A stretch of 53,462 nt of DNA from an uncultured Muribaculaceae bacterium. Its GTDB lineage: Bacteria > Bacillota_I > Bacilli_A > RF39 > UBA660. Below, one piece after another: positions 4,374-38,062 of this stretch; within the stretch, counting starts at the first letter, position 1, and every line of letters begins with the position of its first letter. Made by a program: the position numbers and the translations under genes. Below the pieces are notes generated by a model. That model had not been told where the DNA came from. It worked only from the letters and a program-made list of their open reading frames with translations, and did no database searches. Where the stretch lies: NCBI GenBank assembly GCA_964368535.1, contig CAYJBC010000002.1, positions 3,294 to 56,755 of the forward strand, read 5' to 3'.

Positions 4374-4408
4374 TGAAAGAAAAAACTAATTAGTAATCTA
4401 ATTAGTTT
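4374..4408 (-). terminator. Intrinsic terminator closing the fibre operon
   Basis: Perfect 10-bp inverted repeat AAACTAATTA-N6-TAATTAGTTT overlapping the TAG stop at 4398-4400. On the minus RNA it is followed by TTTTCTTTC. Confidence 0.6.
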
Positions 4409-6053: not shown

Positions 6054-6198
6054 TGCCAACCTCCAAATCTTTAGTTATTTTTTCTTTATTGTCTTTTAAA
6101 AATTCTAAAAATTCTTCTATTTTATAATTTAAATCTATCAACTCTTTATATGAAAGAATTGATAAATCAAAATTAGTTTTATTTTCCTTTTTATCCAT
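6046..6198 (-). CDS. Small 50-aa ORF (MDKKENKTNFDLSILSYKELIDLNYKIEEFLEFLKDNKEKITKDLEVGNE)
   Basis: Below the ORF-track size cut-off; translated by hand. GAGGGAG SD 7 nt upstream. Its last codons overlap the next gene start (AATGAATAA, 8-nt overlap), which suggests translational coupling. Confidence 0.45.
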   Translation of the reverse strand: MDKKENKTNFDLSILSYKELIDLNYKIEEFLEFLKDNKEKITKDLEVGNE

Positions 6199-6218
6199 AT
6201 TTTTCTCCCTCTTACTTC

Positions 6219-7262
6219 TTATAAACCATATCCCGCTAAATCTTTAAAGAAATTAAGCGTTACATTTACTAAGGCTCCTGTTGAATATACTTCTAAACTA
6301 TCAACATCTTGTCCTTCTATCCATATATATACTCTTATTTTAGTTATACCATGTGGTAACTCAAATAATCTATCATCTAAATCTGTTATTGTTTCTTGCT
6401 CTGCAAAGTATTCTGTATTCAGTGGTATATTACTATGCCCTGAGTCATGTTCTAGATACTTACCTTCATTTATGACTGCATATGTAGGAACATATTCTCC
6501 ATTTGTAATATCTATACCATATCTTTTTAATTTTCCTATTGAATAATCACTATGCTCCGTACTATTTGGTTCATATATAGTTGAAAAACATTCATTATTA
6601 CATTCTAGATTTTGCACAGTCTGTGCATCTGCATTTTTATCTGGGGTGAAACCTTGCCACGCTATACCGATTCTTATCGAATTAAACAATCCAGGAATTT
6701 CTTCTTCATAACCTTCATTTAAGTATACTCCAGTACCATCATAAAGATATAAATTATCACTGTATGGTGTGTTACTTATATTTTTTAAAAACACGTCAAA
6801 TGCTACGTATCTACTTCCTAAACTATTTTCTTCATCATAATATATTGTATCTAGGTATCTTCTTCCATTATCTTCTAAATAATCTAATCTAGAATTTTCA
6901 AAAAAAGTAAAATATTTATTATTCGCATCAATGATTCCATTTGATGAAACTGGAACTAAACCATTGTTAGACCATTTATTATTATGATCAGGGTATTCAT
7001 CAGTTATTCCGTATAATATGTTTTCTTCATTTACTATTATTTCACTACCATAATTTACACCATCAAGCGAAGCATATAAACCTGTTTCTCTATTAACTGT
7101 TAATTTAACAAAATCTACAGTAGCATCTATTGAAGATGAAAACCAGGCGTATGTAACTACTATTAAAATTAATCCGACACAAAAAGCAAAAATTAATAAT
7201 ACATTAAAATTTATTTTTCTCCTTTTTATGTCTAATTGTTTTTTGTTTTTTTTACTAGTCAT
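6219..7262 (-). CDS. TasA/camelysin-like fibre protein paralogue with SipW-cognate-type signal peptide
   Basis: 347 aa. N-terminus is K/R-rich plus TM, ending VVTYAWFSSS. Shares LDG..Y, GLVPVSSNG, YVAFDVFLKN, SIRIGIA and IYEPN blocks with 7364..8668 and 8694..10019. C-terminus ITKIRVYIWIEGQDVDS...GALVNVTLNFFKD. SD AGAGGGA. Confidence 0.65.
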   Translation of the reverse strand: MTSKKNKKQLDIKRRKINFNVLLIFAFCVGLILIVVTYAWFSSSIDATVDFVKLTVNRETGLYASLDGVNYGSEIIVNEENILYGITDEYPDHNNKWSNNGLVPVSSNGIIDANNKYFTFFENSRLDYLEDNGRRYLDTIYYDEENSLGSRYVAFDVFLKNISNTPYSDNLYLYDGTGVYLNEGYEEEIPGLFNSIRIGIAWQGFTPDKNADAQTVQNLECNNECFSTIYEPNSTEHSDYSIGKLKRYGIDITNGEYVPTYAVINEGKYLEHDSGHSNIPLNTEYFAEQETITDLDDRLFELPHGITKIRVYIWIEGQDVDSLEVYSTGALVNVTLNFFKDLAGYGL

Positions 7263-7287
7263 ATTTTTCCCTCTTAACTAAGATGAA

Positions 7288-7309
7288 GGAGTAACCATTA
7301 GGTTACCCC
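7288..7309 (-). promoter_or_regulatory. GC-rich intercistronic stem-loop between two fibre paralogues
   Basis: Minus RNA GGGGUAACC-uaau-GGUUACUCC (9 bp including one G-U). It is by far the most GC-rich hairpin in the locus. The following tract UUCAUCUU is a poor U-run, so this is more likely an attenuator or mRNA stability/processing element than a full terminator. Confidence 0.45.
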
Positions 7310-7363
7310 TTTTATCCTAATTTAATTTATTTACAAATTATTATTACATCAATAATTATTATA

Positions 7364-8668
7364 TTATGGTGTAAAGTCAGCTTCTGTAAATTTTTGTTTA
7401 GTAAATCCAAAGTTAACAAGTATTTGTGCTCCAGCAGCAGAAAGGTCCATATTATCTAGGTCATTTCCTTCTAGGTATACATATACTCTTACTTTAGTAA
7501 TACTATTTGGCGCTAAAGTCATAAATGCTGGACGATCATTACCTGCGATTAATTTTTCAGCATCAGTAAATGTATCAACATTTTCAACTAATGTTCCAGC
7601 AGCAACTGGATCAAAAGTATTGTGTCCATCATATATATCAAATCTAGCAGCAGAATTTATTGCTCCACTTACAGCCCATGTATCTAATTCTAGATTATCT
7701 GCAAAAGCAGTAAATCCTGGTTCAACATTTCCGTCTGTGAAATCTCCATCTGCTCCTGTATCTGGTGTAGATACATTACATTGAGTATCAGTGTAAACTG
7801 AATTTCCATCTACATCATCAGCAGATCTATTATCACAGTATGTATTAAACCAATTAATTGCGTTATCTTCATGATTTCTTTCATTTGGTTCATAGATTAC
7901 AGCATCTGTACAGATACCAGTAACTCCACCAGCAACAGTACCAGTAGCACCATTACAAGTGATTCCACCGATAAGTGTTCCATCTTCACTTGATCCATCT
8001 ACACGTCCAATTGGTGCGAATGCCACACGAACTGAATTTTCAATTCCTTGATCAGCAGCTCCAGTATAACCTAGGTCATTACCTTCAGCGTCAGTTGTTC
8101 CAGCAGCAGCTACGCTTACTCCTGAATCAGTTAATAAATAAATTTCTTCTTCATCAGCTAAATTATAATCTTCAATATATTGAGCTCCTGTGAAGTTTTT
8201 GATAAATAAGTCAAATGCAACGTATCCATCTACTTCAGTAGTAGTGTTAGCTAGTTGATCAGCAACTAATCTAAAACCACCACCAGTGTGTGTATAACTT
8301 CCTCTTTCGAAAAGTTCAAGTTTAGAAGTGGCAGGATTAACTGTACCTACAGTTGAAATAGGCATTAAACCATTTCCACCCCAACTATTTGTGTTCCCAT
8401 CATAAACTTGACTAGGTGTTGCAGCTGCATCATCATATGCAGTCCAAGTTCCTTCAGTTAAAGTAACTGTTTCACCCCAGCTAAGTCCATTTAATGATAT
8501 TAATAAGTTATCTGTTGAAGCAATTTCTACTTGGAACTCACTTACAGTAACTTCTTGTAAACCAATAAACCATGCATAAGTTGATACTATTAGTATAACT
8601 GCACTAAATCCAGCAAATATCAAGATATTTTGGATTTTTTTATTAGCTTTTTTATTATTTTTACTCAT
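7364..8668 (-). CDS. TasA/camelysin-like fibre protein paralogue (candidate major subunit)
   Basis: 434 aa. N-terminus ...ILIVSTYAWFIGLQEVTVSEFQVEIASTDNLLISLNG. Blocks VDGYVAFDLFIKNFTGAQYIE, GIENSVRVAFAP, GITC...TGIC, IYEPN, TFTDAEKL. C-terminus RPAFMTLAPNSITKVRVYVYLEGNDLDN...GAQILVNFGFTKQ. SD AGAGGAGA. Confidence 0.7.
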   Translation of the reverse strand: MSKNNKKANKKIQNILIFAGFSAVILIVSTYAWFIGLQEVTVSEFQVEIASTDNLLISLNGLSWGETVTLTEGTWTAYDDAAATPSQVYDGNTNSWGGNGLMPISTVGTVNPATSKLELFERGSYTHTGGGFRLVADQLANTTTEVDGYVAFDLFIKNFTGAQYIEDYNLADEEEIYLLTDSGVSVAAAGTTDAEGNDLGYTGAADQGIENSVRVAFAPIGRVDGSSEDGTLIGGITCNGATGTVAGGVTGICTDAVIYEPNERNHEDNAINWFNTYCDNRSADDVDGNSVYTDTQCNVSTPDTGADGDFTDGNVEPGFTAFADNLELDTWAVSGAINSAARFDIYDGHNTFDPVAAGTLVENVDTFTDAEKLIAGNDRPAFMTLAPNSITKVRVYVYLEGNDLDNMDLSAAGAQILVNFGFTKQKFTEADFTP

Positions 8669-8693
8669 ATTATTTCTCCTCTATATCTTTCTA

Positions 8694-10019
8694 TTATGCT
8701 TCATATATTTGTTTACTGAATCCAAAGTCAACAGTTATTTGTTTTCCTTCGATAGCCCAGTCATAGTTATCTATGTCTTGACCTTCTAAGTAAATATATA
8801 CTCTAATTTTTGTAATACTATTTGGTGCTAAAGTCATGATTGATGGTCTTTCATCAGCATTCAATAATTTTTCAGTGTCTGTAAATGTATCAAAAGCTTC
8901 TAAAGTTGCAGCTCCAGCATTTGGATAAGCAGTTGTTCCATCAGGCATTGTATCTGGCACTTCTGGTACAGCTAAACCATTAAATCCACCATCATAAATG
9001 TTAACATCCATATCAGATGAAATATCAGTTGCTACTGCATATGTAGTATAAGCAGTTCCATTAGCTATTGCTATACAACCTTTAGTTGTAAATCCAGCAC
9101 CAGTTGGAGCAGTTGCTGTTCCTCTATAACCACAGTTATTATTATAATAATTAATTGCACCATCTACGTGAGCTTTATCATTTGGTTCCCAAATACTAGC
9201 AGTTCTACAAATACCAGTAACTACACCAGCTTCACTTGTACAAGTAATACCTGTGATAGTTGCAGCATCAGTTTCAGTACCTTCAACACGTCCTACTTGA
9301 GCAAATGCTACACGAACAGAGTTTTCGATTCCTGAAGCTTGTCTAATTGTATCTTCTGCAGCATCAGTAGTTCCACCGTTATCTCCAGTTAGAGTTACTG
9401 CTACATTTGATTCATCAATTAAATAAATTGCTTCTTCATCAGCAGGATTTAATGCTTCTATATATTGAGCCCCAGTATAATTTTTAACGAATAAGTCAAA
9501 AGCAATATATCCATCTACTTCAGCCACTGGTTGATGTCCAGCAGTAGCATCATCACCATCTAAAGTGTTTTCTACTTGACTAGCCATTAGTCTAGTACCA
9601 TATGGTGGTGTAGGACTTAAACTTGCTTTTTCATACATTACTAATCTTGAAGAAGTAGTATCCATTTCTCCAACAGATGACATAGGTATTAATCCAACAG
9701 GATCGTTTACACCATCACCATCAGTATCAGTATCTAATCTTCCAGTCCATGAGTTTGTATTTCCAACATAAGCACTTGTTCCAGTAACATCTTCAATTGT
9801 ATCTGGATCAATATCTATTGTATCTGACCAATTAGCACCATCAAGTGATAATTCTAAACTATCAGTAGCAGCGATTTTTACTGTAAAATCTTCTACTCTA
9901 ACTTCGTCAAGACCAATAAACCATGCATAAGTTGAAACTATTAAGATAATCGCAGTTAATGTTGTTACTGCAGCTAAATTTCTTATGTTTCTTTTTTGTT
10001 TTGCGTTTCTTTTTTGCAT
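8694..10019 (-). CDS. TasA/camelysin-like fibre protein paralogue (candidate major subunit)
   Basis: 441 aa, roughly half-identical by eye to 7364..8668. STYAWFIGLDEVRVEDFTVKIAATDSLELSLDG, VDGYIAFDLFVKNYTGAQYIE, GIENSVRVAFAQ, GITC...TGIC, WEPN. C-terminus RPSIMTLAPNSITKIRVYIYLEGQDIDN...GKQITVDFGFSKQ. Confidence 0.7.
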   Translation of the reverse strand: MQKRNAKQKRNIRNLAAVTTLTAIILIVSTYAWFIGLDEVRVEDFTVKIAATDSLELSLDGANWSDTIDIDPDTIEDVTGTSAYVGNTNSWTGRLDTDTDGDGVNDPVGLIPMSSVGEMDTTSSRLVMYEKASLSPTPPYGTRLMASQVENTLDGDDATAGHQPVAEVDGYIAFDLFVKNYTGAQYIEALNPADEEAIYLIDESNVAVTLTGDNGGTTDAAEDTIRQASGIENSVRVAFAQVGRVEGTETDAATITGITCTSEAGVVTGICRTASIWEPNDKAHVDGAINYYNNNCGYRGTATAPTGAGFTTKGCIAIANGTAYTTYAVATDISSDMDVNIYDGGFNGLAVPEVPDTMPDGTTAYPNAGAATLEAFDTFTDTEKLLNADERPSIMTLAPNSITKIRVYIYLEGQDIDNYDWAIEGKQITVDFGFSKQIYEA

Positions 10020-10036: not shown

Positions 10037-10735
10037 CTATTTTTCGACTATTTCTGAATTAAATTTCATTTGTAGTTTAATTTCTCCACCAATAATATTA
10101 TTAGTGGTTTCTGGATCTTTACCTTCCAGCCATATTACAATAGTATATTTTGTAATATCACCTGGAGCAAAATCCAAAGTATCATCAACCACAACTAGCT
10201 TATCAGATGCAAAAGGCACAGTTCCTTCTTCAGGCTCACCAGAAGCTGATTCTTTTGCGTAAGTGACTACTTCACCATTCTTGTAAACTTTAATCCTTAC
10301 AGCTTCGTCGACATTTCTTATAACATCATCTATAAGTATTTCAGAATGGTAATCAGTTACAGCTTCTCCTGTATTTTCGATGTAAAATGTATAAGAAATA
10401 TAATTATCTCCATTATTAGATCCGCCCCCATGCGAATCTAAGTCAGCAGGTAACCAACTTTCTGCTACATTATCGAAAGTATCAATCGATGGTGCAACTA
10501 ACTCCGATCTGTACGTTTTATAATTAGGATCATCATAAATGATAAGACCCCTCTCATAATACAAATTCCTATCGAGTGTTATCGTGAAATTTCCACTATT
10601 ATAAACAAACCCAATTACAAGATACGAAAATATAACAGCTAAGATTAGAACTACTATTGCTAATTTAGCAATTTTAATTAACTTCTTATCCCTTCTTATT
10701 TTCTTAGCATCAATTGTAAATTTATTTTCTTCCAT
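10037..10735 (-). CDS. Membrane-anchored TasA-like protein lacking the AWF signal motif (possible anchor or nucleator)
   Basis: The track ORF begins at 10807. ATG at 10735 (MEENKFTIDAKKIRRDKK...) follows AAGGAG. One TM (IAKLAIVVLILAVIFSYLVIGFVY). C-terminus GDITKYTIVIWLEGKDPETTNNIIGGEIKLQMKFNSE matches the family strand motif. Confidence 0.55.
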   Translation of the reverse strand: MEENKFTIDAKKIRRDKKLIKIAKLAIVVLILAVIFSYLVIGFVYNSGNFTITLDRNLYYERGLIIYDDPNYKTYRSELVAPSIDTFDNVAESWLPADLDSHGGGSNNGDNYISYTFYIENTGEAVTDYHSEILIDDVIRNVDEAVRIKVYKNGEVVTYAKESASGEPEEGTVPFASDKLVVVDDTLDFAPGDITKYTIVIWLEGKDPETTNNIIGGEIKLQMKFNSEIVEK

Positions 10736-10811
10736 ATTTATCAATCTCCTTGATATCAACAAGAAATATTTACTCTTGAGTGTATTGATATCTTGTCTAT
10801 AATACAAATTA

Positions 10812-10840
10812 ATTATATAAAATAAAACATTCTAAGTCAA
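10812..10840 (-). promoter_or_regulatory. Sigma-A-type promoter for the 10735->4398 fibre operon
   Basis: On the minus strand TTGACT-17 nt-TATAAT (-35 at 10840-10835, -10 at 10817-10812), about 70 nt upstream of the start codon. Confidence 0.5.
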
Positions 10841-11014: not shown

Positions 11015-11638
11015 ATGAAAAAAAGAGTAAGAATATTATTTTTGTTTGTATCTGTTGTAATTACCCTTAGTATGATTAGCAGCACATATTCTCGGTATGT
11101 AGCTGATACTACTGGAACTGTTGATGTTTCTCTTTCCAAATGGCAAATACTTGTAAATGAAACAGATATTGTTCAAAATGCATCTTCAACCATAGAGTTT
11201 ACTCCTCATATTGAACAAAATAATAATGTGACTAATAATACATTAGCTCCTACATCTACTGGATACTTCGATATAGAAGTAGATCCTACAAATGTTGATT
11301 TATCTTTTAGATACAGTATTGAATTAAGTTCTGCAAGTACTGATGTTCCTGATTTTATAATTAATAAATACGAAATACTTGAAGGTGATACTTTAGTTAG
11401 CAATCCTTTGAATATAATAAATATAAGTAATGGTATTATAGAAAACACACTGCTTTATAATAGTAATGTTGAAAATTATATACATGAAAAGTTTACTATA
11501 AGAGTTTACTTTGAATGGTTTGATGGTGATACTAATATAATGACTGATGAGCAAGATACCGAAGTTGGTAATAGAGCTGCAATCGAAGATTTAAAAGTTG
11601 CAATACAAGCTAATGTAACATTTGAACAAGTTATTTAA
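11015..11638 (+). CDS. Small TasA/camelysin-like secreted protein, the only plus-strand gene in the locus
   Basis: 207 aa. N-terminus MKKRVRILFLFVSVVITLSMISSTYSRYVADTTGT, a variant of the T-Y-A-x-F-x-D class signal. FTIRVYFEWFDGDTN and KVAIQANVTFEQV parallel the RVY..EG.D and terminal-strand motifs of the paralogues. Confidence 0.55.
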   Translation: MKKRVRILFLFVSVVITLSMISSTYSRYVADTTGTVDVSLSKWQILVNETDIVQNASSTIEFTPHIEQNNNVTNNTLAPTSTGYFDIEVDPTNVDLSFRYSIELSSASTDVPDFIINKYEILEGDTLVSNPLNIINISNGIIENTLLYNSNVENYIHEKFTIRVYFEWFDGDTNIMTDEQDTEVGNRAAIEDLKVAIQANVTFEQVI

Positions 11639-11671: not shown

Positions 11672-12898
11672 CTATATTGTGCTTAATGCTGTTTTATCTG
11701 CGATTATTACAGGTACTACTTTACATTGATTAGTTTTATTATTTGAATATAGTTGACTGCGAGATGTATTTATCGATCCTATTGCAAAACCATTATCTAC
11801 ATCATACTCACTATTAGTCCAAACACAAGTTGCTGTATATAATGAAGAAAATTTATCATTAGAATATGTAAAGTTACCTCCATATGTTATAGTATCTGTT
11901 ATTTTTTTATCACTTCTACCATCATAGTTAACTGAACCTATTATAATATCTGACATATTTTCTTTTTCTATATAACTGTTTACAATATCTTTAGATATTA
12001 TATTAAGTACATCTGTTGCTTCTAAAGGTCTTGTATCAACTGTCCATGAAGCAACTCTTGAATTATATGTTGTTAGATACGCATCATAACTGCTTAATGA
12101 AGCTGCTGATTTTACATCAGGTAATAATGTAACTGTATTTTCAGATAATAAATTATCTATATCAATTACATTTGTTTTTAAACAAGTTGAGCTAATTGTT
12201 GTACAAGATTTATTATTAACTACATCAAATAATACTATGTCTCCTAATCTATAATCTCTATCCGAAGCTTCTGGCGAAGATTCAACTGTTTGTTCAGCTA
12301 TTACATCAATTACTATTTCAATCGGATTTTTTACTTCATAAGATGAATCCAATGCTAACTTATCATTTTCACTTACTGCAAAATTATATGCCTTTAATCC
12401 CCATTGACTATCTAATGCATCATTTCCAGTATCAAGAGGCCATGATATCGATACTTCAAAAGTACTATATCCAGTTCTGTACGGTAATAGTGTGTCACTT
12501 AAACTTACATCTATATGAAATGGATATTCATGCGCTAGTGCATCCTCTATTTGTTCGCTAGTTCTTACTGGATCGGTTAATAGCAAATCTTCTTCGAAAA
12601 CTCTAGCAGATTCAACATATGTATAAAGTTTTGCATCTGCATCTCCAAAATTATTGATTTCAATTACTTCAGTAACAGTTTCCATTCCTGGATATATTTC
12701 TGCAGATGTAATTACTATACTATTTGTAACTGATGTACTATCATCAGTGAATTCTATGTTCCACGCTCTTACATCTACAACAGCTGATACTGTTGTGCTA
12801 TTCATTCCTGTAAACCAGGCATAAGTTACTGAGGCAAACAATATAACTATAAGTATTAGAACGAATATTTTTAATTTTGTAATATTTCTTTTAATCAT
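11672..12898 (-). CDS. TasA-like N-terminal domain protein with SipW-cognate-type signal and a distinct C-terminal domain
   Basis: 408 aa. N-terminus ...LILIVILFASVTYAWFTGMNSTT. FEVSISWPLDTGND...IEIVIDVIAEQ strand pattern. C-terminal half ends CVWTNSEY...KVVPVIIADK, echoing the YTMS...VVRPVISIK end of 878..2515. SD AAAGGAG. Confidence 0.6.
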   Translation of the reverse strand: MIKRNITKLKIFVLILIVILFASVTYAWFTGMNSTTVSAVVDVRAWNIEFTDDSTSVTNSIVITSAEIYPGMETVTEVIEINNFGDADAKLYTYVESARVFEEDLLLTDPVRTSEQIEDALAHEYPFHIDVSLSDTLLPYRTGYSTFEVSISWPLDTGNDALDSQWGLKAYNFAVSENDKLALDSSYEVKNPIEIVIDVIAEQTVESSPEASDRDYRLGDIVLFDVVNNKSCTTISSTCLKTNVIDIDNLLSENTVTLLPDVKSAASLSSYDAYLTTYNSRVASWTVDTRPLEATDVLNIISKDIVNSYIEKENMSDIIIGSVNYDGRSDKKITDTITYGGNFTYSNDKFSSLYTATCVWTNSEYDVDNGFAIGSINTSRSQLYSNNKTNQCKVVPVIIADKTALSTI

Positions 12899-12919: not shown

Positions 12920-13492
12920 TTATTCCCTTGGTATATTTCTTCTTTTTGCTTCCTTTTCAAGCATTCTACTTATTATTTCATACCCTATAATAAATAGTAC
13001 TGGAACTATTATTAATAAGTACATACCTAAAGGTGTACTTATAATATTGTATATAAATGATAAAAATGCTGCGTTATGAACTACTACTCCATATATTTGT
13101 TCTTCACTAACTATTGGATCTTCTACCTCATTAGCTATACCTTTAGTTCTGAATAAAAGATTCCCATCTTCGTCAGTTTCTATATCGATAACTGCATGTG
13201 TAACAACTTTATCTTTGAATTCCCCTTCAGTTCCCAGATAACTTATATCGTCACCTATTTCTATATCATTTGGGTCTTTTTCTATACTTATTAAAATGTC
13301 TCCTACCTCATACTTAGGAATCATACTACCAGTTAATACACTAAACATTCTTATATTTAAAAATGCAAATTCGTTATTACTAAATCTCTGAAGACCAACC
13401 ATAAGCACAAAACATATTATAAATATACCTATTAATATTTTGGTCAAAAGTTTTATTATAGAGAAAACCTTTTTAACTTTCTTATTTTTCAT
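12920..13492 (-). CDS. sipW: Signal peptidase I, SipW (ER/archaeal, Ser-His) type
   Basis: 190 aa. N-terminal TM, VLTGSMIPKYEVGDILI (catalytic Ser box), VVTHAVIDI (His box), FRTKGIANEVEDP (TKGD-N box), C-terminal TM plus basic tail. Lies immediately upstream of the TYAWF-signal proteins. Confidence 0.8.
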   Translation of the reverse strand: MKNKKVKKVFSIIKLLTKILIGIFIICFVLMVGLQRFSNNEFAFLNIRMFSVLTGSMIPKYEVGDILISIEKDPNDIEIGDDISYLGTEGEFKDKVVTHAVIDIETDEDGNLLFRTKGIANEVEDPIVSEEQIYGVVVHNAAFLSFIYNIISTPLGMYLLIIVPVLFIIGYEIISRMLEKEAKRRNIPRE

Positions 13493-13500
13493 CTTATCAA

Positions 13501-14640
13501 TTACAAGTATTCTTGTACCCTTTCTAAGTATTCATCCATAGCATTTTTAAATTTATTTTTAATATCTTGATTTGCTACTTTACTTTTATCATCCATATTA
13601 TGATTGTCATTACCTAAATTATTTGCGATAAGTTCAAGTATTTCATCATCTGTTATATTAAATCCACATTTCTTTAATAAATCTAATAATCTCTTTATCT
13701 CATCATTTATTAATGATAATGCATATTTATTTAATTTTTCTTTTTGTTCTTTTTTTGTTTTACAAACACTTTCTAATACATAAAAATCTACTAAAAATGA
13801 ATGATCTAATAATCCCATCAATAAATCTGAACCATCAGAATCTAAACCTTTTCTTTTATCACCTTGATTATCAAGATAATTATATAAAAAGTTCCATAAC
13901 TCTACTGCCATTTTGAAATTAGGATTTTTAAGAATTATATTTGTCTTCTTAATTGGTGGATTAACTAGTTTAACTCTGGCTTTTTCCAACTGTTTAAATA
14001 ATTCACTTCTTTGCCAAGAAGACAAATAATCTTTAACCCTATTAATTCTTTTTCTTATACTGCTTATTTCATCTAATAAATCTTTATTTAAATCTGGCTT
14101 TGATACATCTGTTGCTTTAAGAAGAACTTGCATTTTAATTTCTTCATTCGCTACTCTTGTAGTACCCATATATTCTAGTTTACGAGTACGATCTATTAGA
14201 AGTTCATCTAGTTCTTTTTCCTTTTTTGCTATAAATCTAGCCAGAAAATAAATAACTGTGTAAAGGAATCTATTTTCATAAATATTATAAGTTTCTTCAC
14301 TTTTAATATTTAGTATTTTAGATGGTCTAACATCACCTTTGGGAGTAACATCATCAATATAATAGTTATGAACTGCTAAGTCTTTAATACTTTCAACAGT
14401 TATTTTTTTAGCCTTTTCAATTAATTCAACTTCCGCTTCATTTATTAGTATTAATTTAGGATTTCTTACAACATTGTCAAGGTAAGGGCAAGACTCTTCA
14501 ACGATATCTATCCAATCAAAGTTGATTGAGTCTCCATCCATTTTTGCTTTGTATTGCATATCTGATGTTATTTTTTCAAAGAACACTTTATTCTTTTTCT
14601 TAATCTCAACATCAATATCCTTATCGATTAAATCAGCCAT
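13501..14640 (-). CDS. DUF2357/McrC-N-like partner protein with no recognisable nuclease motif
   Basis: 379 aa with SD AGGGAGG. TYNIYENRFLYTVIYFLARFI and KNPNFKMAVELWNFLYNYL resemble the ENRF-type motifs I associate with DUF2357/McrC-like partners of McrB ATPases. I see no PD-(D/E)xK-like D...(D/E)xK block and no TM segment. Starts 23 nt after the McrB-like gene. Confidence 0.4.
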   Translation of the reverse strand: MADLIDKDIDVEIKKKNKVFFEKITSDMQYKAKMDGDSINFDWIDIVEESCPYLDNVVRNPKLILINEAEVELIEKAKKITVESIKDLAVHNYYIDDVTPKGDVRPSKILNIKSEETYNIYENRFLYTVIYFLARFIAKKEKELDELLIDRTRKLEYMGTTRVANEEIKMQVLLKATDVSKPDLNKDLLDEISSIRKRINRVKDYLSSWQRSELFKQLEKARVKLVNPPIKKTNIILKNPNFKMAVELWNFLYNYLDNQGDKRKGLDSDGSDLLMGLLDHSFLVDFYVLESVCKTKKEQKEKLNKYALSLINDEIKRLLDLLKKCGFNITDDEILELIANNLGNDNHNMDDKSKVANQDIKNKFKNAMDEYLERVQEYL

Positions 14641-14663
14641 GCTCTAGCCTCCCTTTCATTCTT

Positions 14664-16181
14664 TTAAATTGATTTTTTTATGTATTCTATAAATTCAATA
14701 CATTCTTTCATAACACCTTTACCACATTCCTTATTTAAGAATGAAATAAAAGGATCTAACTCATCACGTATAAACGCTATATTTAATTGTTCAAATTTTC
14801 TTAATATTTTTTTAGCTATAAAGTAATCTATGGCTTCAATCTCTGATCCGCCACATGCTACATATACTGGCGCAAATGTTTTAAGCTGTTTCATAATACG
14901 ATTACCAAATGCTATTCTAAAATGATTAATAACATAATCATCTATTTTAGCCAACTTATTTAAACCATCTTCAGTTACTGGATATTTTACAATAGCCTCT
15001 TCAAATAAATTTTCTAAATATGTTGCATTCATTGGCAATGCATCTTGTTTTCTTGATTCAAATGGTTTAATTTTTTTGTTAATATCTATCGGTATCGCTC
15101 TGTCATAAACCTTATCTGTTACCATATAAGTTGAATCATCGTTATTAATTGTACCTATATACCAAAGATTTCCAGGCAATCTCAATTTACCATTATCAAG
15201 TTTTGCTGCGTCATGTGGCCAACCACTTGTAACAAGCTCAATAACCCATTCATCTCTTGCTGGAATTTCTAGAATAGATAACATTTCTGCAAAATAATAT
15301 TCTACTCTAGCAATGTTCATTTCATCTAGTATAATTGTATGAACATTATCATCAAAACTCGCTGCATAAATTTCTCCAAGTGCTTCAGTTTCAGTGAATT
15401 TTTTAGTAAATTCATTGAAATATCCTAGGAATTCAGTTTTATCTTTCCAAGATGGCTGAACTGATGCTACTACTGAATCATTAGCAACAAATTTACCCCA
15501 CGCATATGCTAAAGAAGTTTTACCTGTTCCTGATATACCTTGAAGAATTATTAACCTACTTGATGCAAGGCCTGCGATAAATGTTCTTAACAGGGAATGA
15601 TCATAAAATAATTTTAGACTACTTGCAGAAAATGCTCTAAAATCATCTGTCATTTGCTCTAATGTAAAATTATTATTGTAATTTTCAGGTGTATAATCTA
15701 CAAACTGCTCATCAATAAGTTCAAGTTTTGGAAATCTATGGGCATTTTCTTTTGTTTCTTCATCAACTTCATCTTCTGGATTAATACCATCTTCGCCCTC
15801 TTCATCAGGATTTAAGCCTAATTGAGAAACTTTCATAGCCATTAATTCAGCATTTTCTTTCATTAATTTTCTAACTTGATTATTTAATTTATCTACTTCT
15901 TCTAGTAGTGAATCATTACTTATTTTATGAGTTTTATTTCTCACAAATTTTCTTACATATAAGAAAATAAGGAAAGCTATTAAACCTATAATAAGTACAA
16001 TAATACCTACTGCTATTGCTGTAAATAGCCATTCAGGTCCATCAAATTCTTTGCTGTAATTATCTATAATTTTTACATAATTACCGAAATTAAATATTCC
16101 TACTATACCTTCCCATATTGATTGTAATCCTGAAACAAATATATCAAAGAATTCGTAAAAAAATCTTAAAAATGTATCCAT
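14664..16181 (-). CDS. Membrane-anchored McrB-family AAA+ (AAA_5) NTPase
   Basis: 505 aa. TM helix (WLFTAIAVGIIVLIIGLIAFLIFLYV), coiled-coil, acidic linker. Then Walker A LQGISGTGKTSLA, SVQPSWKDKTEFLGYFN, Walker B plus family signature IILDEMNIARVEYYFAEMLSILE, and IGTINNDDSTYMVTDKVYDRA (the McrB MNxxDR-like block). Start overlaps the stop of the upstream gene by 1 nt (TAATG). Confidence 0.7.
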   Translation of the reverse strand: MDTFLRFFYEFFDIFVSGLQSIWEGIVGIFNFGNYVKIIDNYSKEFDGPEWLFTAIAVGIIVLIIGLIAFLIFLYVRKFVRNKTHKISNDSLLEEVDKLNNQVRKLMKENAELMAMKVSQLGLNPDEEGEDGINPEDEVDEETKENAHRFPKLELIDEQFVDYTPENYNNNFTLEQMTDDFRAFSASSLKLFYDHSLLRTFIAGLASSRLIILQGISGTGKTSLAYAWGKFVANDSVVASVQPSWKDKTEFLGYFNEFTKKFTETEALGEIYAASFDDNVHTIILDEMNIARVEYYFAEMLSILEIPARDEWVIELVTSGWPHDAAKLDNGKLRLPGNLWYIGTINNDDSTYMVTDKVYDRAIPIDINKKIKPFESRKQDALPMNATYLENLFEEAIVKYPVTEDGLNKLAKIDDYVINHFRIAFGNRIMKQLKTFAPVYVACGGSEIEAIDYFIAKKILRKFEQLNIAFIRDELDPFISFLNKECGKGVMKECIEFIEYIKKSI

Positions 16182-18649
16182 TATTTTTCCTCCCTATTAA
16201 TTATTAATTTTGATTCTATATCATCTTTAATAATTTTATTTTTGAAATTATCGAAAACAACTTTCTCTAATTCTATTATCTTGTTTGTTCCTTTATCTAT
16301 AAATATATACTCTGCTAATGCTATACCAGTTTTATTTTTACTAGCAAATTTAGTTTCATCATTAATGTACATTGCTATTCTAAATCCATTTTTTCTTAAA
16401 TTTTTAATACTAGCAGCTTTTTTCATAAATAAATCGTAATTTATAAGATAAACAATATTTTTCTTAGCGTATTCTTCATTATTTTGTTTAAATAATCTTT
16501 CAAACTTAGCATCCTTTAAACATAAGCTATTTGGTATCATTACCATATATTCATTTACAAATTCTCCAGTAAGCATGTCATGAGATAACCTTGCTTGAAG
16601 TAGTGTAAGAAGCACATTAAGTTTGTCTTCTGCAACTATTCCTTCCATGTAAGCTTTAGTTACCACTTTATCACTGTATACTTGTGAAAAGTTTATATTA
16701 TGTTTTAAATCCAATAGGAATTTAGCTTTTTCAGTTTTAAAACTATGGTATATAAGTTCAAACATTTCTGTGTTAAGTCTATCTAAGAAATATTTTGAAG
16801 CTGATCTATAGTGTTTTTGAGAATGTATGATTTCTTTAACTGTATACTCTATATTATCATTTTCTATATCATAATCATGAATAAATTTAATAATTTCTTT
16901 TGTATAAAGTATTTTTTTGTTTCTCATATTAATATCTAGGTCCACTAAATATTCTAGTTTTGATATAAGTAATATTAAACTCGAGTATTTTATTAATTTT
17001 TCTTCATAAGATTTATCATTTCCTGAGTATACACTTGCAAGTTTGGCACTATCTTCTTCTAAGGCATATGACACTCTTGTTATTAGTTTTTTTATTCTTG
17101 CTGCATAACTTTTAGAAAAACCATTTTTTTCACTAATTACTGTTGTACTATTAAGAACTGCATATCTAGGTTTTTTTGCTGCTGCTTTTCTTGTTTCCAA
17201 TGCTGCCACTTTTTCACTAAATATATTGTAATATTTCGACTCCAAATAAGATTTAATTAAAGCTTTTTTTATTGATGCTTCATTAGTTAAAATTTTACTT
17301 TCACCAAATATTAAATCTATAGTTTTATTTATTTCTTCTTCTTTAATGGCCATAGTTCTAGCTATTATATTTTTACTTCTTTTATTTTCTGGTTTATTAA
17401 AAATCATTTCTAATGTGAATTTGGCCTCTTCTTCATCATTTTTCTTTTCTTTTTCTTTAATTGGTTCTTCCTCAACTGTTTTCTCAACTATTTCGGGTTG
17501 TTCAACAATTTCTTCTTCAACTTCAGGCATTTCATAATCTTCATCATCTGTACTTATTATGAAAGAATCATTTGATACTGGAATATCAACTTTTTCCTCT
17601 ACCACTTCATCAACTGTTTCTTCGTTTATATTCATTTCAAGAGGTAGATTTTCTTCAGTTTCTTCTTCAATAGTATTTATTACTTCTTCTTTTTGACTTT
17701 CAGCGAATCTTTCTTTAATTGTTTGTCCTTTTTCTGCACTTCTTGCTGGCTCATTACCTAATGGTTCATCTCCAGTAATAATCGGTCTATCATTAAAATC
17801 ATTTGGCTTTTCAATTTCTTCTTCAAAAGATTTTTCACTTACTAAGTCTTTGTCTTCATCAACTTCAATCATTCTAAAAAACATTGTTTTACTTAATTCG
17901 TCTTCTTTATCATAATCATCAATAATTTTTTCTTCTTCTATTTCATTTTCTTCATCAACATCAAATTTAGTGTGATCTTCTAACTTTTCTTCATAATCTG
18001 TAAATTTAGGTTGTGAAGCTACATTTTCAAAGGATTTTGTTGTGTTATCTTTAAAAAATTCTTCTTCTTCTTTTTGGTTACTAAATTTATTTTTAATTTG
18101 ATTAAACAAATATTTTATTTTTTTTATCACCTTGTTAAAACCTCCTTTTTTTAATTCTTTTGTATTAAATATATATACCGTTATTATTAATGCTATTAAA
18201 ACATATGGGTTAAATAATGTGTTTCTGAACACTCCAAATAAAGGTATTATCGTTACTACTTCACCAACTATTTGCTCTGTTCCAATTGGGTCATCTTCTT
18301 TGTTATTAGCGTCCCCTTTTGTAATATAAGTTTCACTATATTTTTCTATAACACGATGGGTAATAAAATTTCCATCTTGTTTGAATGTAACAATATCATC
18401 TAAATTAAAACTTTTCTGTTCTTTAACTATAATCCAATCACCAGCACTAATTTCTGGTTCCATGCTTCCTGTTTGTACTTCAAACATTGTGTAACCGAAA
18501 AAACTGGAATAATCATTTCCCAGAATTTTAACTTGTACAACATTATATAAAGATATCAAAAGTATTATTCCAAAAATAAATATTAAGACATCTAATAAAA
18601 TATTAGTAGCTTTTTTCATGTATTTATTAGCACCAATATTTGACAACAT
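16181..18649 (-). CDS. SipW-type signal peptidase domain fused to a ~650-aa acidic/helical C-terminal extension
   Basis: 822 aa. Residues ~15-165 are TM, then FEVQTGSMEPEISAGDWIIV, FITHRVIEK, YITKGDANNKEDDP, then a second TM (canonical SipW boxes). A long E/D/K-rich low-complexity stretch follows, then a helical domain. SD GGAAGG upstream. Confidence 0.75.
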   Translation of the reverse strand: MLSNIGANKYMKKATNILLDVLIFIFGIILLISLYNVVQVKILGNDYSSFFGYTMFEVQTGSMEPEISAGDWIIVKEQKSFNLDDIVTFKQDGNFITHRVIEKYSETYITKGDANNKEDDPIGTEQIVGEVVTIIPLFGVFRNTLFNPYVLIALIITVYIFNTKELKKGGFNKVIKKIKYLFNQIKNKFSNQKEEEEFFKDNTTKSFENVASQPKFTDYEEKLEDHTKFDVDEENEIEEEKIIDDYDKEDELSKTMFFRMIEVDEDKDLVSEKSFEEEIEKPNDFNDRPIITGDEPLGNEPARSAEKGQTIKERFAESQKEEVINTIEEETEENLPLEMNINEETVDEVVEEKVDIPVSNDSFIISTDDEDYEMPEVEEEIVEQPEIVEKTVEEEPIKEKEKKNDEEEAKFTLEMIFNKPENKRSKNIIARTMAIKEEEINKTIDLIFGESKILTNEASIKKALIKSYLESKYYNIFSEKVAALETRKAAAKKPRYAVLNSTTVISEKNGFSKSYAARIKKLITRVSYALEEDSAKLASVYSGNDKSYEEKLIKYSSLILLISKLEYLVDLDINMRNKKILYTKEIIKFIHDYDIENDNIEYTVKEIIHSQKHYRSASKYFLDRLNTEMFELIYHSFKTEKAKFLLDLKHNINFSQVYSDKVVTKAYMEGIVAEDKLNVLLTLLQARLSHDMLTGEFVNEYMVMIPNSLCLKDAKFERLFKQNNEEYAKKNIVYLINYDLFMKKAASIKNLRKNGFRIAMYINDETKFASKNKTGIALAEYIFIDKGTNKIIELEKVVFDNFKNKIIKDDIESKLIINREEK

Positions 18650-18724: not shown

Positions 18725-18753
18725 AAAAAAAAGTAGACAAATTAATATCTACT
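18725..18753 (-). terminator. Weak intrinsic terminator after the degenerate SipW-like gene
   Basis: AGTAGA-N10-TCTACT hairpin spanning the stop codon, followed on the minus RNA by a T8 run. Confidence 0.45.
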
Positions 18754-19338
18754 ACTTCTTTCTACTTTTTTCGGTTTATTTTTCACTTTTTTTTGTTTTT
18801 TTTCTTCATAAACTCTTGGACTATCATCGTTTCCAAATTTTATTTCAACTATTAAAGCATATATTTGATAAATAAATATTAAGAAACAAGGAACTACTAT
18901 TAAGAAGAAGAACACCCATGTTGATTGTAATAAACCAACATATGTTCCTAAACCACTATATACTTCTGTTGCGCTTCCTGCGATAAATTTAGAAGAATAA
19001 GTCGGTCCATTTTCCAAAGTAACCGCATCTTCATCAATATGAACTTCCCCTACAAAGCCTAACTCTATATTTACTTTATCATTATCATTAATTTGAAATA
19101 AAAATATTTCATCGCCAACGTTAATATCTTTTAATGGTTCTTTTAAAGTAAGAACTAAGTCTCCTTTTTCATATTTTGGAGACGATATTTCATCACCTAT
19201 TATAAGAAGCGATGTGTTATCAAATTGCGTGATTCCAAATTCATCATCTCTATTTAGCAGTAATATTGACATACCTATTGCTATTATAAAAAATAATAAT
19301 ATTAATATTCCCACTATAATTTTTTTTACTATTCTCAT
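18742..19338 (-). CDS. SipW-like paralogue with degenerate catalytic boxes (possible pseudo-peptidase)
   Basis: 198 aa with the same topology as SipW (N-terminal TM, C-terminal TM, K-rich tail). SPKYEKGDLVLTLKEP aligns with IPKYEVGDILISIEKD of 12920..13492, but the GSM Ser box reads GDEISS and no TKG(D/I)AN box is present (LENGPTYSS). SD AGGTGAG. Confidence 0.55.
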   Translation of the reverse strand: MRIVKKIIVGILILLFFIIAIGMSILLLNRDDEFGITQFDNTSLLIIGDEISSPKYEKGDLVLTLKEPLKDINVGDEIFLFQINDNDKVNIELGFVGEVHIDEDAVTLENGPTYSSKFIAGSATEVYSGLGTYVGLLQSTWVFFFLIVVPCFLIFIYQIYALIVEIKFGNDDSPRVYEEKKQKKVKNKPKKVERSSRY

Positions 19339-37985: not shown

Positions 37986-38062
37986 TGGTGGAGAATAAGG
38001 GACTCGAACCCTTGACCCCCTGCGTGCAAGGCAGGTGCTCTAGCCAACTGAGCTAATTCCCC
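37986..38062 (-). tRNA. tRNA-Ala (anticodon UGC), CCA encoded
   Basis: Reverse complement GGGGAATTAGCTCAGTTGGCTAGAGCACCTGCCTTGCACGCAGGGGGTCAAGGGTTCGAGTCCCTTATTCTCCACCA. Folds as a cloverleaf, with anticodon loop CTTGCAC, the G3:U70 Ala identity pair and a TTCGAGT T-loop. Confidence 0.95.

Follow-up and report, generated by a model that had tools for sequence, protein, structure and literature searches.

A membrane-anchored McrB-like GTPase and a McrC-like partner in a conserved signal peptidase operon of uncultured gut Bacilli

Described relatives

The closest described system is a class that Bell et al. (eLife 2024, with Koonin as co-author) named CoCoPALM in a single paragraph of their section 7, deferring its analysis (PMC11090510). 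The class is a large clade defined by an NxD-motif McrB GTPase fused to an FtsB-like transmembrane (TM) and coiled-coil segment and associated with signal peptidases, and its McrC homologue usually carries a coiled coil as well (PMC11090510). The same paper reports that CoCoNuT systems whose McrC has no nuclease always have a HEPN or other nuclease nearby that makes up for the loss (PMC11090510). A literature search found no follow-up to the CoCoPALM paragraph, experimental studies included, and papers mentioning SipW together with McrB proved to be strain-genotype coincidences only.

Two better-known systems provide further points of comparison. In E. coli McrBC, a type IV restriction enzyme (6HZ4, 6UT6, 7VSR), as in the locus described here, an AAA+ GTPase core with Walker A and B motifs, a sensor asparagine and arginine residues is followed immediately downstream by a partner gene encoding the McrC N-terminal domain (DUF2357). 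In the tapA-sipW-tasA and sipW-calY/bsaA operons of Bacillus and Clostridium, a SipW-type (archaeal/ER-type) peptidase is encoded beside secreted proteins whose signals end in an aromatic-rich T-x-A-x-F-like motif, again as found here. We know of no cytoplasmic NTPase in those operons.

On sequence features, the locus analysed here matches the CoCoPALM description: it has an NxD GTPase with an N-terminal TM helix and coiled coil, signal peptidase neighbours and an apparently nuclease-less McrC homologue, although the evidence for FtsB homology and for a coiled coil on the McrC homologue is partial. A first-pass annotation of this DNA had regarded the arrangement as undescribed, but the class already has a name. 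What the locus adds to the published paragraph is a family of candidate substrates with an [ST]xAWF signal, a degenerate third peptidase, a SipW-tail protein, fused or split, directly upstream of the GTPase, an unusually short McrC homologue, and statistics on conservation.

Organization of the locus

The window (the whole stretch of DNA analysed, 53,462 nt) contains a cluster of genes designated here O to D, all on the minus strand except I. Re-reading the ORFs for M, L and sipW gave the same coordinates, overlaps and motifs as the first-pass annotation. The ATG of M overlaps the TAA of the 822-aa N gene by one base (TAATG) and has a GGGAGG ribosome-binding site 8 nt upstream. L begins 23 nt after the M stop, its start preceded by AAAGGGAGG, and sipW (K) begins 8 nt after the L stop. 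These junctions would allow translational coupling. No convincing terminator was found between N and J, and a promoter scan returned no more sites than the shuffled expectation.

The McrB-like GTPase

M (505 aa; nt 14664-16181) is predicted to be a membrane-anchored McrB-like GTPase. Its GISGTGKTS, SVQPSWKDKTEFLGYFN, IILDEMNIARVEYYFAEML and IGTINNDDST..DKVYDR motifs were confirmed, and McrB chains (6hz4, 6ut6 and 7vsr) are its sole sequence matches in the PDB, over aa 190-363, with E=8e-4 when the single sequence is searched and 1.8e-6 when the family profile is. This likeness to McrB exceeds chance, in agreement with the original family assignment. Walker A (GISGTGKT, of the form GxxGxGK[T/S]; nt 15516-15539) and Walker B (LDEMN, of the form DExN; nt 15315-15329) are both present. 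Across 19 diverse homologues G215, G218, G220, K221, T222, D286 and N289 are invariant, as are the sensor Asn N346, D348 and Arg residues, and the Walker B pattern occurs in 267 of 270 family members. The McrB signature (nt 15138-15146) takes the form NxD, rather than the NxxD of canonical McrB, in M and in 257 of the 270 members; the residue that follows is D in 216, E in 36, Q in 3, A in 1 and G in 1. Because NxD followed by D or E is the pattern given for the NxD branch (PMC11090510), M is placed there.

The TM helix, coiled coil and acidic linker that the first-pass annotation had read at the N-terminus are all supported, and they replace the DNA-binding domain of canonical McrB, so that M would be anchored in the membrane. 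There is one strong TM helix (aa 56-74, nt 15960-16016; Kyte-Doolittle mean 3.34). The RKFVRNKTHK that follows it makes the AAA+ domain cytoplasmic under the positive-inside rule. Residues 14-32 are hydrophobic as well, though less strongly (mean 1.28), and may form a second helix or a re-entrant one. The predicted coiled coil (aa 88-118, nt 15828-15920) gives leucine-zipper-type matches, and the linker beyond it (aa 119-150, nt 15732-15827) is 37.5% D+E.

Profile searches place M at some distance from the canonical enzyme: the NCBIfam McrB equivalog scores it at 20 bits against a cut-off of 637. Its best profile match is PADLOC PDC-M26A (3.6e-37), which is confined to the AAA+ core and spans positions 226-431 of the 724 in that profile. 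Neither L nor N matches a PADLOC model. The PDC systems in PADLOC are unpublished candidates, and a literature search for PDC-M26 found nothing. Like the window, CoCoNuT and PDC-M26 systems combine the NxD GTPase branch with coiled-coil fusions and a McrC that is often nuclease-less or inactive. PDC-M26A-like relatives, unlike M, lack a TM helix and are 700-800 aa long, and the one example examined lies in a defence island with a 783-aa partner. The M family descends from defence systems.

The McrC-like partner

L (379 aa; nt 13501-14640, minus strand) appears to be a soluble McrC-like partner with a helical C-terminal half. Its similarity to McrC/DUF2357, noted earlier from motifs such as YENRFLYTVIYFLARFI, which is indeed present, is borne out by a match to PF09823 (aa 30-151, nt 14188-14553), which at 30.5 bits clears the gathering cut-off of 23.3. 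DUF2357 is also annotated in nearly all homologues of L among the matches listed, and alignment A1 contains the invariant motifs EETxNxYENxFLxT and PPIKKTNxxLKNPxF.

The first-pass annotation had also seen no nuclease in L, and the searches agree. Scans of Pfam, NCBIfam and PADLOC returned no nuclease family, and a profile search against PDB sequences gave nothing meaningful. An AlphaFold2 model from a 32-sequence alignment, of low confidence (pLDDT 61), is all helical after residue 186, and Foldseek found no match for it in the PDB at E<=1e-3. The apparent absence of the PD-(D/E)xK nuclease of canonical McrC rests mainly on the missing sequence matches and the all-helical secondary-structure prediction. 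In contrast to CoCoNuTs, no compensating nuclease was found in the cluster.

The only coiled-coil-like feature of L in the window is a short helix at aa 183-209. At 379 aa this McrC homologue is unusually short compared with the 700-850 aa, with long E/R/K-rich coiled coils, of more distant members. Three long homologues from the distant set (704-939 aa) have highly charged C-terminal extensions, and clear E/R/K-rich coiled coils are found in two of the three and likewise in locus L082.

Signal peptidases

The pair lies between two SipW-type signal peptidase genes, as first reported: N (822 aa; nt 16181-18649, minus strand) and the stand-alone K, or sipW (190 aa; nt 12920-13492, minus strand). 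N comprises a peptidase part (aa 20-161, nt 18167-18592; TIGR02228 7.9e-22), an acidic linker and a predicted cytoplasmic tail domain (aa 431-822, nt 16184-17359); K matches the same model at 5.1e-22. The respective scores are 77.8 and 78.4 bits, with a curated cut-off of 51.85, and the catalytic motifs are conserved (GSM and THRV in N, GSM and TH in K). Neither protein is an orthologue of Bacillus SipW, since the SipW equivalog gives them only 67-71 bits against 190. O (198 aa; nt 18742-19338, minus strand) has a SipW-like shape, with N- and C-terminal TM helices, and lacks the catalytic GSM and TH motifs. It matches no peptidase family in Pfam or NCBIfam, no Ser or His motif is conserved in a 53-sequence alignment, and it is likely a degenerate pseudo-peptidase. 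A homologue is present upstream of N in 56 of 80 loci.

The arrangement of N and its tail differs between lineages. In one clade SipW and the tail form a single protein of 670-810 aa; in another they are two genes, and the tail gene still abuts M. This split form is seen in the more distant loci (L043 and L046-L080), where an independent soluble ORF of about 330 aa encodes the tail immediately ahead of M. Overall, a tail ORF directly precedes M in at least 57 of 62 loci, and this pattern of fusion and splitting appears to link the peptidase to the GTPase module. The tail has no relative in Pfam or the PDB; its best PDB match is a designed TIM-barrel repeat (E=0.007), and one of 25 tail members has a marginal match to the EAL model (E=0.035). 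These matches give no more than a hint of a degenerate EAL or TIM-like fold.

Secreted proteins

Four ORFs in the 53-kb window encode an [ST]TYAWF signal, all of them in the cluster: J (408 aa; nt 11672-12898) and the three paralogues E (nt 6219-7262), F (nt 7364-8668) and G (nt 8694-10019), all on the minus strand. In related loci the signal is present in 112 of 123 homologues of these proteins, compared with 7 of 427 other ORFs. The [ST]xAWF signal resembles the motif recognized by SipW. J, in whose homologues A27, W28 and F29 are invariant, is the most syntenic candidate substrate.

The first-pass annotation had called this a SipW/TasA-type fibre operon, a label that the searches with the secreted proteins do not demonstrate. 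None of J, E, F, G, H and I has a significant Pfam or NCBIfam match. The AlphaFold model of J (pLDDT 85.8) consists of a signal helix, a beta-sandwich and a Cys-rich alpha/beta domain, the beta-sandwich core being shared with the Bacillus and Clostridium fibre proteins. Foldseek finds no match for this model at E<=1e-3, and TasA (5of1_B) appears at rank 26 with E=0.12, a probability of 0.54 and a TM-score of 0.37. The window differs from the Bacillus and Clostridium operons in that its secreted proteins have no detectable TasA or camelysin homology, and also in its set of parts: two peptidases predicted to be active, a degenerate one, and four to five large substrates that are paralogues of one another.

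Operon conservation and distribution

The main survey covers 80 species-representative genomes in which M is 55-81% identical to the protein from the window. L directly follows M in 76 of 76 loci; in 74 of 75 the gene after L is SipW (K), at a median distance of 7 nt; and in 67 of 69 K is in turn followed by a J protein bearing an [ST]xAWF signal. Median intergenic gaps along tail-M-L-SipW-J are 3-17 nt. The flanks are not conserved, and the ArgRS and P-type ATPase genes that flank the cluster recur in only 2 of the 80 loci. With the distant set, in which M is 44-57% identical, the survey extends to 160 loci (44-81%). Of the distant loci, 45 of 64 have a peptidase-like gene upstream of M, and 32 of 60 have one downstream of L. 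The first-pass annotation was therefore right that the pair is wired into an operon of peptidases and secreted proteins, given an order that is near-invariant over 160 loci with unconserved flanks. M is the best conserved gene of the cluster (median identity 60%), followed by K (50%), L (41%), J (39%) and E-G (26-29%), and the set of secreted genes varies between relatives. Such figures have the pattern of a machine with fast-evolving surface cargo.

Far from being rare, the system has close relatives encoded in at least 455 stretches of species-representative genomes and in 598 metagenome stretches. Most carriers are uncultured gut Bacilli that bear the labels Mollicutes, Tenericutes or Bacilli, and no description of their surface structures was found in the literature. 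No full-length relative of M was found in 72,556 plasmids or 50,697 phages, and 2.9 million viral contigs contain only three relatives, distant and limited to the core. The cluster that carries M is not mobile.

Co-occurrence with sipW and [ST]xAWF genes holds for relatives of the M-L pair but not throughout the wider family. TM-less cousins of M adjoin OLD/TOPRIM, Cas02710 and MazE/PIN genes in defence islands and also occur on plasmids. Relatives with two or four TM helices exist without obvious peptidase neighbours, so that being anchored in the membrane is not in itself a sign of fibre assembly. For four distant relatives (P0251, P0264, P0252 and P0249) the contigs are too short to give informative context.

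Possible function

It is somewhat probable, at roughly 0.6, that M and L are an exapted restriction-type motor, a GTP-driven cytoplasmic module for fibre assembly rather than for DNA-cutting defence. We regard the pair as a machine component because of the McrB identity of M, the DUF2357 domain and apparent lack of a nuclease in L, the synteny, the SipW-tail fusion, the conservation pattern, the lack of mobility, the gene junctions and the CoCoPALM class named in the literature. The TM helix and coiled coil would hold M against the membrane on its cytoplasmic side, and M probably assembles there into an McrB-like hexamer. In McrBC it is the N-terminal domain of McrC that inserts into the McrB ring and raises its rate of GTP hydrolysis. 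L may retain only this domain, a helical region having replaced the nuclease, and may contact M in the same manner. The pair would then be a constant part of an operon for the production and processing of surface proteins, with two presumably active SipW-type peptidases, one degenerate one, and four to five secreted proteins with [ST]xAWF signals. GTP-driven cycling could be relayed to the site of cleavage or assembly through the SipW-fused cytoplasmic tail, if this touches M, and might gate the processing of the secreted proteins and their polymerisation into a fibre or pilus-like structure, or supply the energy for it, assuming that coupling runs in this direction.

A defence function would fit the ancestry in McrBC and CoCoNuT-like systems (PMC11090510). 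M and L could be a membrane sensor or effector that watches the envelope, for example a pilus serving as phage receptor, and sets off a peptidase- or membrane-based abortive response, with the secreted proteins as decoys or variable shields. The TM-less relatives in defence islands and on plasmids are consistent with this, and both the rapid divergence of the secreted proteins (26-39% median identity) and the differences in their gene set would be expected of surfaces exposed to phage. The PDC-M26A match (3.6e-37) also points this way, although it covers only the AAA+ core and leaves the partner unmatched. However, among the cluster proteins that were scanned none was recognised as a nuclease or as another known toxic effector, M is highly conserved (55-81% identity across the 80 species genomes) and lies in a fixed operon, not in variable islands, and full-length M is absent from the phage and plasmid collections. 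We consider a defence role unlikely. The narrower alternative offered by the first-pass annotation, a defence module hitch-hiking in the operon, is effectively excluded because gene order is near-invariant, the flanks are unconserved, and SipW is fused to or split from the protein upstream of M.

Less likely again is a general role of M-L in the envelope or in cell division, with the surface-protein genes merely co-regulated. The lineage is made up of Bacilli labelled Mollicutes or Tenericutes, groups with small genomes and unusual envelopes, which would suit such a role. The N-terminal module of the class is considered homologous to FtsB (PMC11090510), and DivIC, FtsL and FtsL_2 Pfam models do match 4-5 of 38 M N-terminal segments. 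These matches are sub-threshold, however, and of a kind typical of any TM and coiled-coil segment; no division genes are conserved next to the cluster in the surveyed loci, and the tight gene overlaps and the SipW-tail fusion and splitting argue for physical coupling to the peptidase. Chance insertion of an independent McrBC-like restriction module between two signal peptidase genes is very improbable. Mobility is common among McrBC-type modules, which are found inserted in many different settings, and cousins of M do have plasmid matches. Against this, the tail-M-L-SipW-J order is kept in essentially every locus with enough sequence, with M down to 44% identity and flanks that are not conserved, the start codon of M overlaps the stop of the upstream gene, and neither a DNA-binding domain nor a nuclease was recognised in the pair.

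The motor reading also has a bolder form, which is tentative. M-L would be the obligatory GTP engine of an unrecognised class of surface-fibre (pilus-like) machinery in uncultured gut Bacilli, a restriction-type motor stripped of its DNA-binding domain and nuclease, tethered to the membrane, docked to the SipW tail and powering or gating extraction, cleavage and polymerisation of the [ST]xAWF subunits, as the McrBC counterpart of the type IV pilus ATPase. In both forms the motor reading faces the objection that TasA-type and donor-strand fibres are not known to depend on a cytoplasmic NTPase for their assembly, which leaves no obvious need for a motor. The resemblance to type IV pili and archaella, which likewise combine a dedicated peptidase, pilin-like paralogues and a cytoplasmic hexameric NTPase in one operon, is one of function only. 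The PilB-type ATPases (PilB/PilT) are a family unrelated to the McrB-type AAA+ GTPase of the window, the prepilin peptidases PilD/FlaK are aspartic (A24) whereas those of the window are of the serine S26 type, and the cleavage motif follows the hydrophobic segment in the window's proteins but precedes it in pilins.

If the proposed role is correct, McrBC-type restriction machinery has been converted into a motor for envelope biogenesis, to our knowledge the first such case, which would challenge the idea that Sec, a signal peptidase and accessory matrix proteins are all that SipW-dependent fibres require. The class has been named, yet no published analysis or experiment was found; the parts list given here (peptidases, tail domain, GTPase, partner, [ST]xAWF substrates and pseudo-peptidase) makes it testable.

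Remaining cluster genes

D (553 aa; nt 4398-6059, minus strand), a predicted soluble helical protein, forms the conserved end of the cluster and has a homologue in 37 loci. It has no significant Pfam match. It was considered as a HEPN or other nuclease and rejected: the RKNNIH string of D in the window is not kept among 28 homologues, which have no conserved Rx4-6H. I (207 aa; nt 11015-11638, plus strand) bears the related signal SSTYSRYVAD and is always inverted relative to the operon; 64 of 80 loci have a homologue at this position, likewise inverted. H (nt 10037-10807, minus strand) is predicted to be TM-anchored and shares a C-terminal ITKxxVxxWxEGxD motif with E, F and G; in the distant set, as well, homologues lie upstream of the genes for the peptidase and M.

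Organization and conservation of the gene cluster

Six ORFs lie in series on the minus strand of the window: O, a two-TM SipW-like protein (18742-19338, 198 aa); N, a SipW domain fused to a long tail (16181-18649, 822 aa); M, an McrB-like GTPase (14664-16181, 505 aa); L, its McrC-like partner (13501-14640, 379 aa); K, a SipW-type signal peptidase (12920-13492, 190 aa); and J, a secreted protein (11672-12898, 408 aa). The junctions were read directly. N and M meet at TAATG, where one base is common to the TAA of N and the ATG of M, and GGGAGG is present 5' of that ATG. The stop codon of M is 23 nt from the start of L, which is preceded by AAAGGGAGG, and the stop of L is 8 nt from the start of K. 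All of the ORFs, junctions and motifs quoted in the first-pass annotation were found on direct reading.

In a scan of one genome per species, at least 455 stretches encode a relative of M. The best 80 of these were analyzed (M 55-81% identical to that of the window); the window proteins were placed on the loci by tblastn, and ORF calls within them are mechanical. Among loci with enough sequence, L directly follows M in 76 of 76, a SipW-type gene corresponding to K directly follows L in 74 of 75, J directly follows K in 67 of 69, and an N-type ORF ends at the start of M in at least 57 of 62, with median gaps of 3-17 nt at these adjacencies. Only 2 of the 80 loci have the genes that flank the cluster in the window (for ArgRS and a P-type ATPase); the conserved unit is the cluster, not its chromosomal neighborhood. 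The earlier proposal that the M-L pair is wired into a SipW operon is strongly supported by this gene order, and the alternative, that the pair is a passenger module in a peptidase operon, is essentially excluded. A second set of 80 metagenome loci was seeded with more distant relatives (M 44-57% identical to that of the window). L follows M in 68 of 68. Peptidase-like genes are found in the 1.2 kb upstream of M (45 of 64 loci) and in the 1.5 kb downstream of L (32 of 60), and genes encoding [ST]xAWF proteins and homologues of the TM-anchored protein H are close by.

The McrB-like and McrC-like proteins

By sequence, the only solved proteins that M matches are McrB chains, both as a single sequence (E=8e-4) and as a 19-sequence profile (E=1.8e-6), and the alignment spans Walker A, Walker B and the signature region. 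The Pfam AAA_5 match is marginal (E=0.096). Since the score against the NCBIfam McrB equivalog is far below its cut-off, M is, as judged from these comparisons, a member of the McrB family and not an McrB orthologue. N346 and D348 are invariant in the family alignment, the residue after them being D, E or Q, and the NxD pattern is present in 257 of 270 family members. A single strong TM helix spans aa 56-74 of M, and the basic residues clustered just after it predict a cytoplasmic AAA+ domain. A second, weaker hydrophobic segment occupies aa 14-32. D+E account for 37.5% of the linker at aa 119-150. The TM and coiled-coil calls come from hydropathy and weak profile matches, not from dedicated predictors.

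L exceeds the gathering cut-off of Pfam for DUF2357, which is the N-terminal domain of McrC, contains the invariant blocks EETxNxYENxFLxT and PPIKKTNxxLKNPxF, and has no TM segments. It matched no nuclease family in Pfam, NCBIfam or PADLOC and no PDB sequence. Its AlphaFold model is poor (pLDDT 61), with a C-terminal half predicted to be wholly helical, and a Foldseek search with this low-confidence model returned no match. The first-pass description of L as lacking a nuclease is thus supported by the absence of family matches and by predicted secondary structure, not by a confident fold.

Signal peptidases and secreted proteins

The catalytic GSM and TH motifs are kept in K and in the N-terminal SipW domain of N. 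Both are missing from O, which resembles SipW in its two-TM shape and is therefore probably a pseudo-peptidase; of the 80 loci, 56 have a homologue upstream of the gene for the SipW fusion. About 40 related loci resemble the window in that the ORF next to M encodes a protein of 670-810 aa combining SipW topology with a long tail. In loci L043 and L046-L080, the ORF next to M encodes a soluble protein of ~330 aa (at about 8960-10000), homologous to the cytoplasmic tail of N (window 16184-17359, minus strand), and the SipW domain is a separate ~175-aa gene roughly 2 kb upstream. The tail domain is thus the constant neighbor of M, covalently joined to the peptidase in one clade. No recognizable family was found for it; the only hints are a designed TIM-barrel repeat (E=0.007) and one sub-threshold EAL match (1 of 25 members, E=0.035). 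Its C-terminal third, with the consensus ELMxxGYxFAIxLD, bears a weak likeness to a beta/alpha (TIM or EAL-like) unit. The tail may be a nucleotide-binding domain that has degenerated.

Over the whole 53 kb of the window, a hydrophobic segment that ends in [ST]xAWF occurs in exactly four ORFs, namely E, F, G and J, which all belong to the cluster. Across loci, this signal is found in 112 of 123 homologues of these proteins versus 7 of 427 other ORFs. The AlphaFold model of J is good (pLDDT 85.8) and consists of a signal helix, a beta-sandwich and a Cys-rich alpha/beta domain. Foldseek gave no significant match to it, TasA appearing only at E=0.12. It is therefore plausible that the [ST]xAWF proteins are extracellular and are substrates of SipW. 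The "TasA-type" label that they had been given is unproven. Median identity to the window proteins falls from M (60%) through K (50%), N (44%), L (41%) and J (39%) to E-G (26-29%), a gradient consistent with a conserved machine whose surface cargo evolves rapidly. The set of cargo proteins differs among relatives, but the peptidase-tail-M-L-peptidase core does not.

Relationship to CoCoPALM systems

The NxD variant is a defining feature of the CoCoNuT and CoCoPALM branch (Bell et al., eLife 2024, PMC11090510). The window locus has both this variant and the signal peptidases of CoCoPALM, and M has the TM and coiled-coil architecture, with sub-threshold FtsB-type matches in hmmscan. Coiled coils are usually found on the McrB and McrC homologues alike (PMC11090510). 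L is unusually short; the partners in more distant members are 700-850 aa, and E/R/K-rich coiled coils are clear in two of the three long distant McrC homologues inspected. The window locus is very probably of CoCoPALM type. The arrangement, which had been thought undescribed, belongs to a class already named by Bell et al. (PMC11090510), who deferred its analysis to a forthcoming publication; in the literature searched, the name CoCoPALM was found in no later paper. Because the class has been named but is essentially unexplored, the locus is a well-resolved example of a known, uncharacterized system. It now has a concrete, testable parts list.

A possible assembly motor

In McrBC structures, GTP hydrolysis is stimulated by the N-domain of McrC, which threads the McrB hexamer. 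By analogy with these structures, on which the mechanism as a whole is modeled, M would form a membrane-tethered ring on the cytoplasmic side, plugged by L, and GTP turnover would move the helical C-terminal region of L. This movement would reach the peptidase and assembly site via the tail domain fused to, or encoded beside, SipW, and processing and polymerization of the [ST]xAWF proteins would be gated or powered. A motor role for M and L is unproven, and this reading, the likeliest of those considered, is given a probability of about 0.5.

The main rival, that the system is still a conflict system acting at the envelope, seems unlikely.

In the wider family of M, an exhaustive HMMER search retrieved 8,197 cluster representatives (E<=1e-3). 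The AAA+/C-terminal region (aa ~145-503) of the 150 best comes with one, two or four TM helices or, in others, with a TM-less N-terminal extension of ~400 aa. All 10 relatives tested match PADLOC PDC-M26A, an unpublished defense candidate. One TM-less relative (P0282, 763 aa) adjoins a 783-aa DUF2357 protein, an OLD/TOPRIM protein, Cas02710 and MazE/PIN, which constitute a defense island. A relative with four TM helices (P0269, 615 aa) has a 663-aa partner encoded directly downstream, and none of the neighboring genes encodes a peptidase. No full-length relatives of M were found in 72,556 plasmids or 50,697 phages, and 2.9 million viral contigs gave three matches only, core-only and at 29-34% identity; core-only relatives are present on 283 plasmids. 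The membrane-anchored, peptidase-linked branch therefore looks chromosomal and stable, and its soluble cousins look like mobile defense genes.

Further features of the loci

A relative with two TM helices (P0262, 484 aa) from a high-GC genome belongs to an McrB-like paralogue pair around a DUF2357 and coiled-coil gene, with giant surface proteins beside it. This arrangement is seen at 5235-9777 of locus L082 (high-GC genome GCA_947629725.1), where membrane-anchored McrB-like paralogues of 428 and 484 aa surround a 613-aa DUF2357/coiled-coil gene; no SipW-type gene was seen there, and the neighbors encode a 1171-aa GH3_C/Fn3 membrane protein and a 1789-aa repeat surface protein.

The window has a very low G+C content (23-35%). 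Its GC skew is strongly negative along most of the sequence, the minus strand encodes nearly all of the genes, and a single tRNA, tRNA-Ala(TGC), lies at 37986-38062. These features fit a small-genome Bacilli/Mollicutes-like chromosome arm. Organism labels were taken from the titles of MAG records at NCBI, and some of them ("Muribaculaceae", for example) look mis-assigned. A terminator-like hairpin between F and E (7286-7311, minus strand) and a sigma-70-like site (11 of 12) just upstream of H (10812-10840, minus strand) suggest that H-G-F is a transcription unit separate from N-M-L-K-J.

Four cysteines in the C-terminal alpha/beta domain of J (C232, C239, C358 and C392) are invariant, an indication of extracellular disulfides in a gut organism that is presumably anaerobic. 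I (207 aa, 11015-11638, plus strand) carries a related signal, SSTYSRYVAD, and is always oriented opposite to the operon; in distant loci, a second I-like copy occurs between O and SipW. Extra secreted proteins absent from the window, of ~1200, ~181 and ~299 aa, are encoded at L016 1760-6903 and L073 7423-8956, and the ~181-aa protein (GITYSIFHS...LKPGDKEEFLFNVSN) is TasA/camelysin-sized. At 878-2515 on the minus strand, the window encodes a 545-aa protein with an N-terminal TM anchor (...STLFVTMAFLGPG), to which a 539-aa ORF directly upstream of O in L041 is weakly similar (26% identity); the 545-aa protein may belong to this set of surface proteins as a peripheral member.
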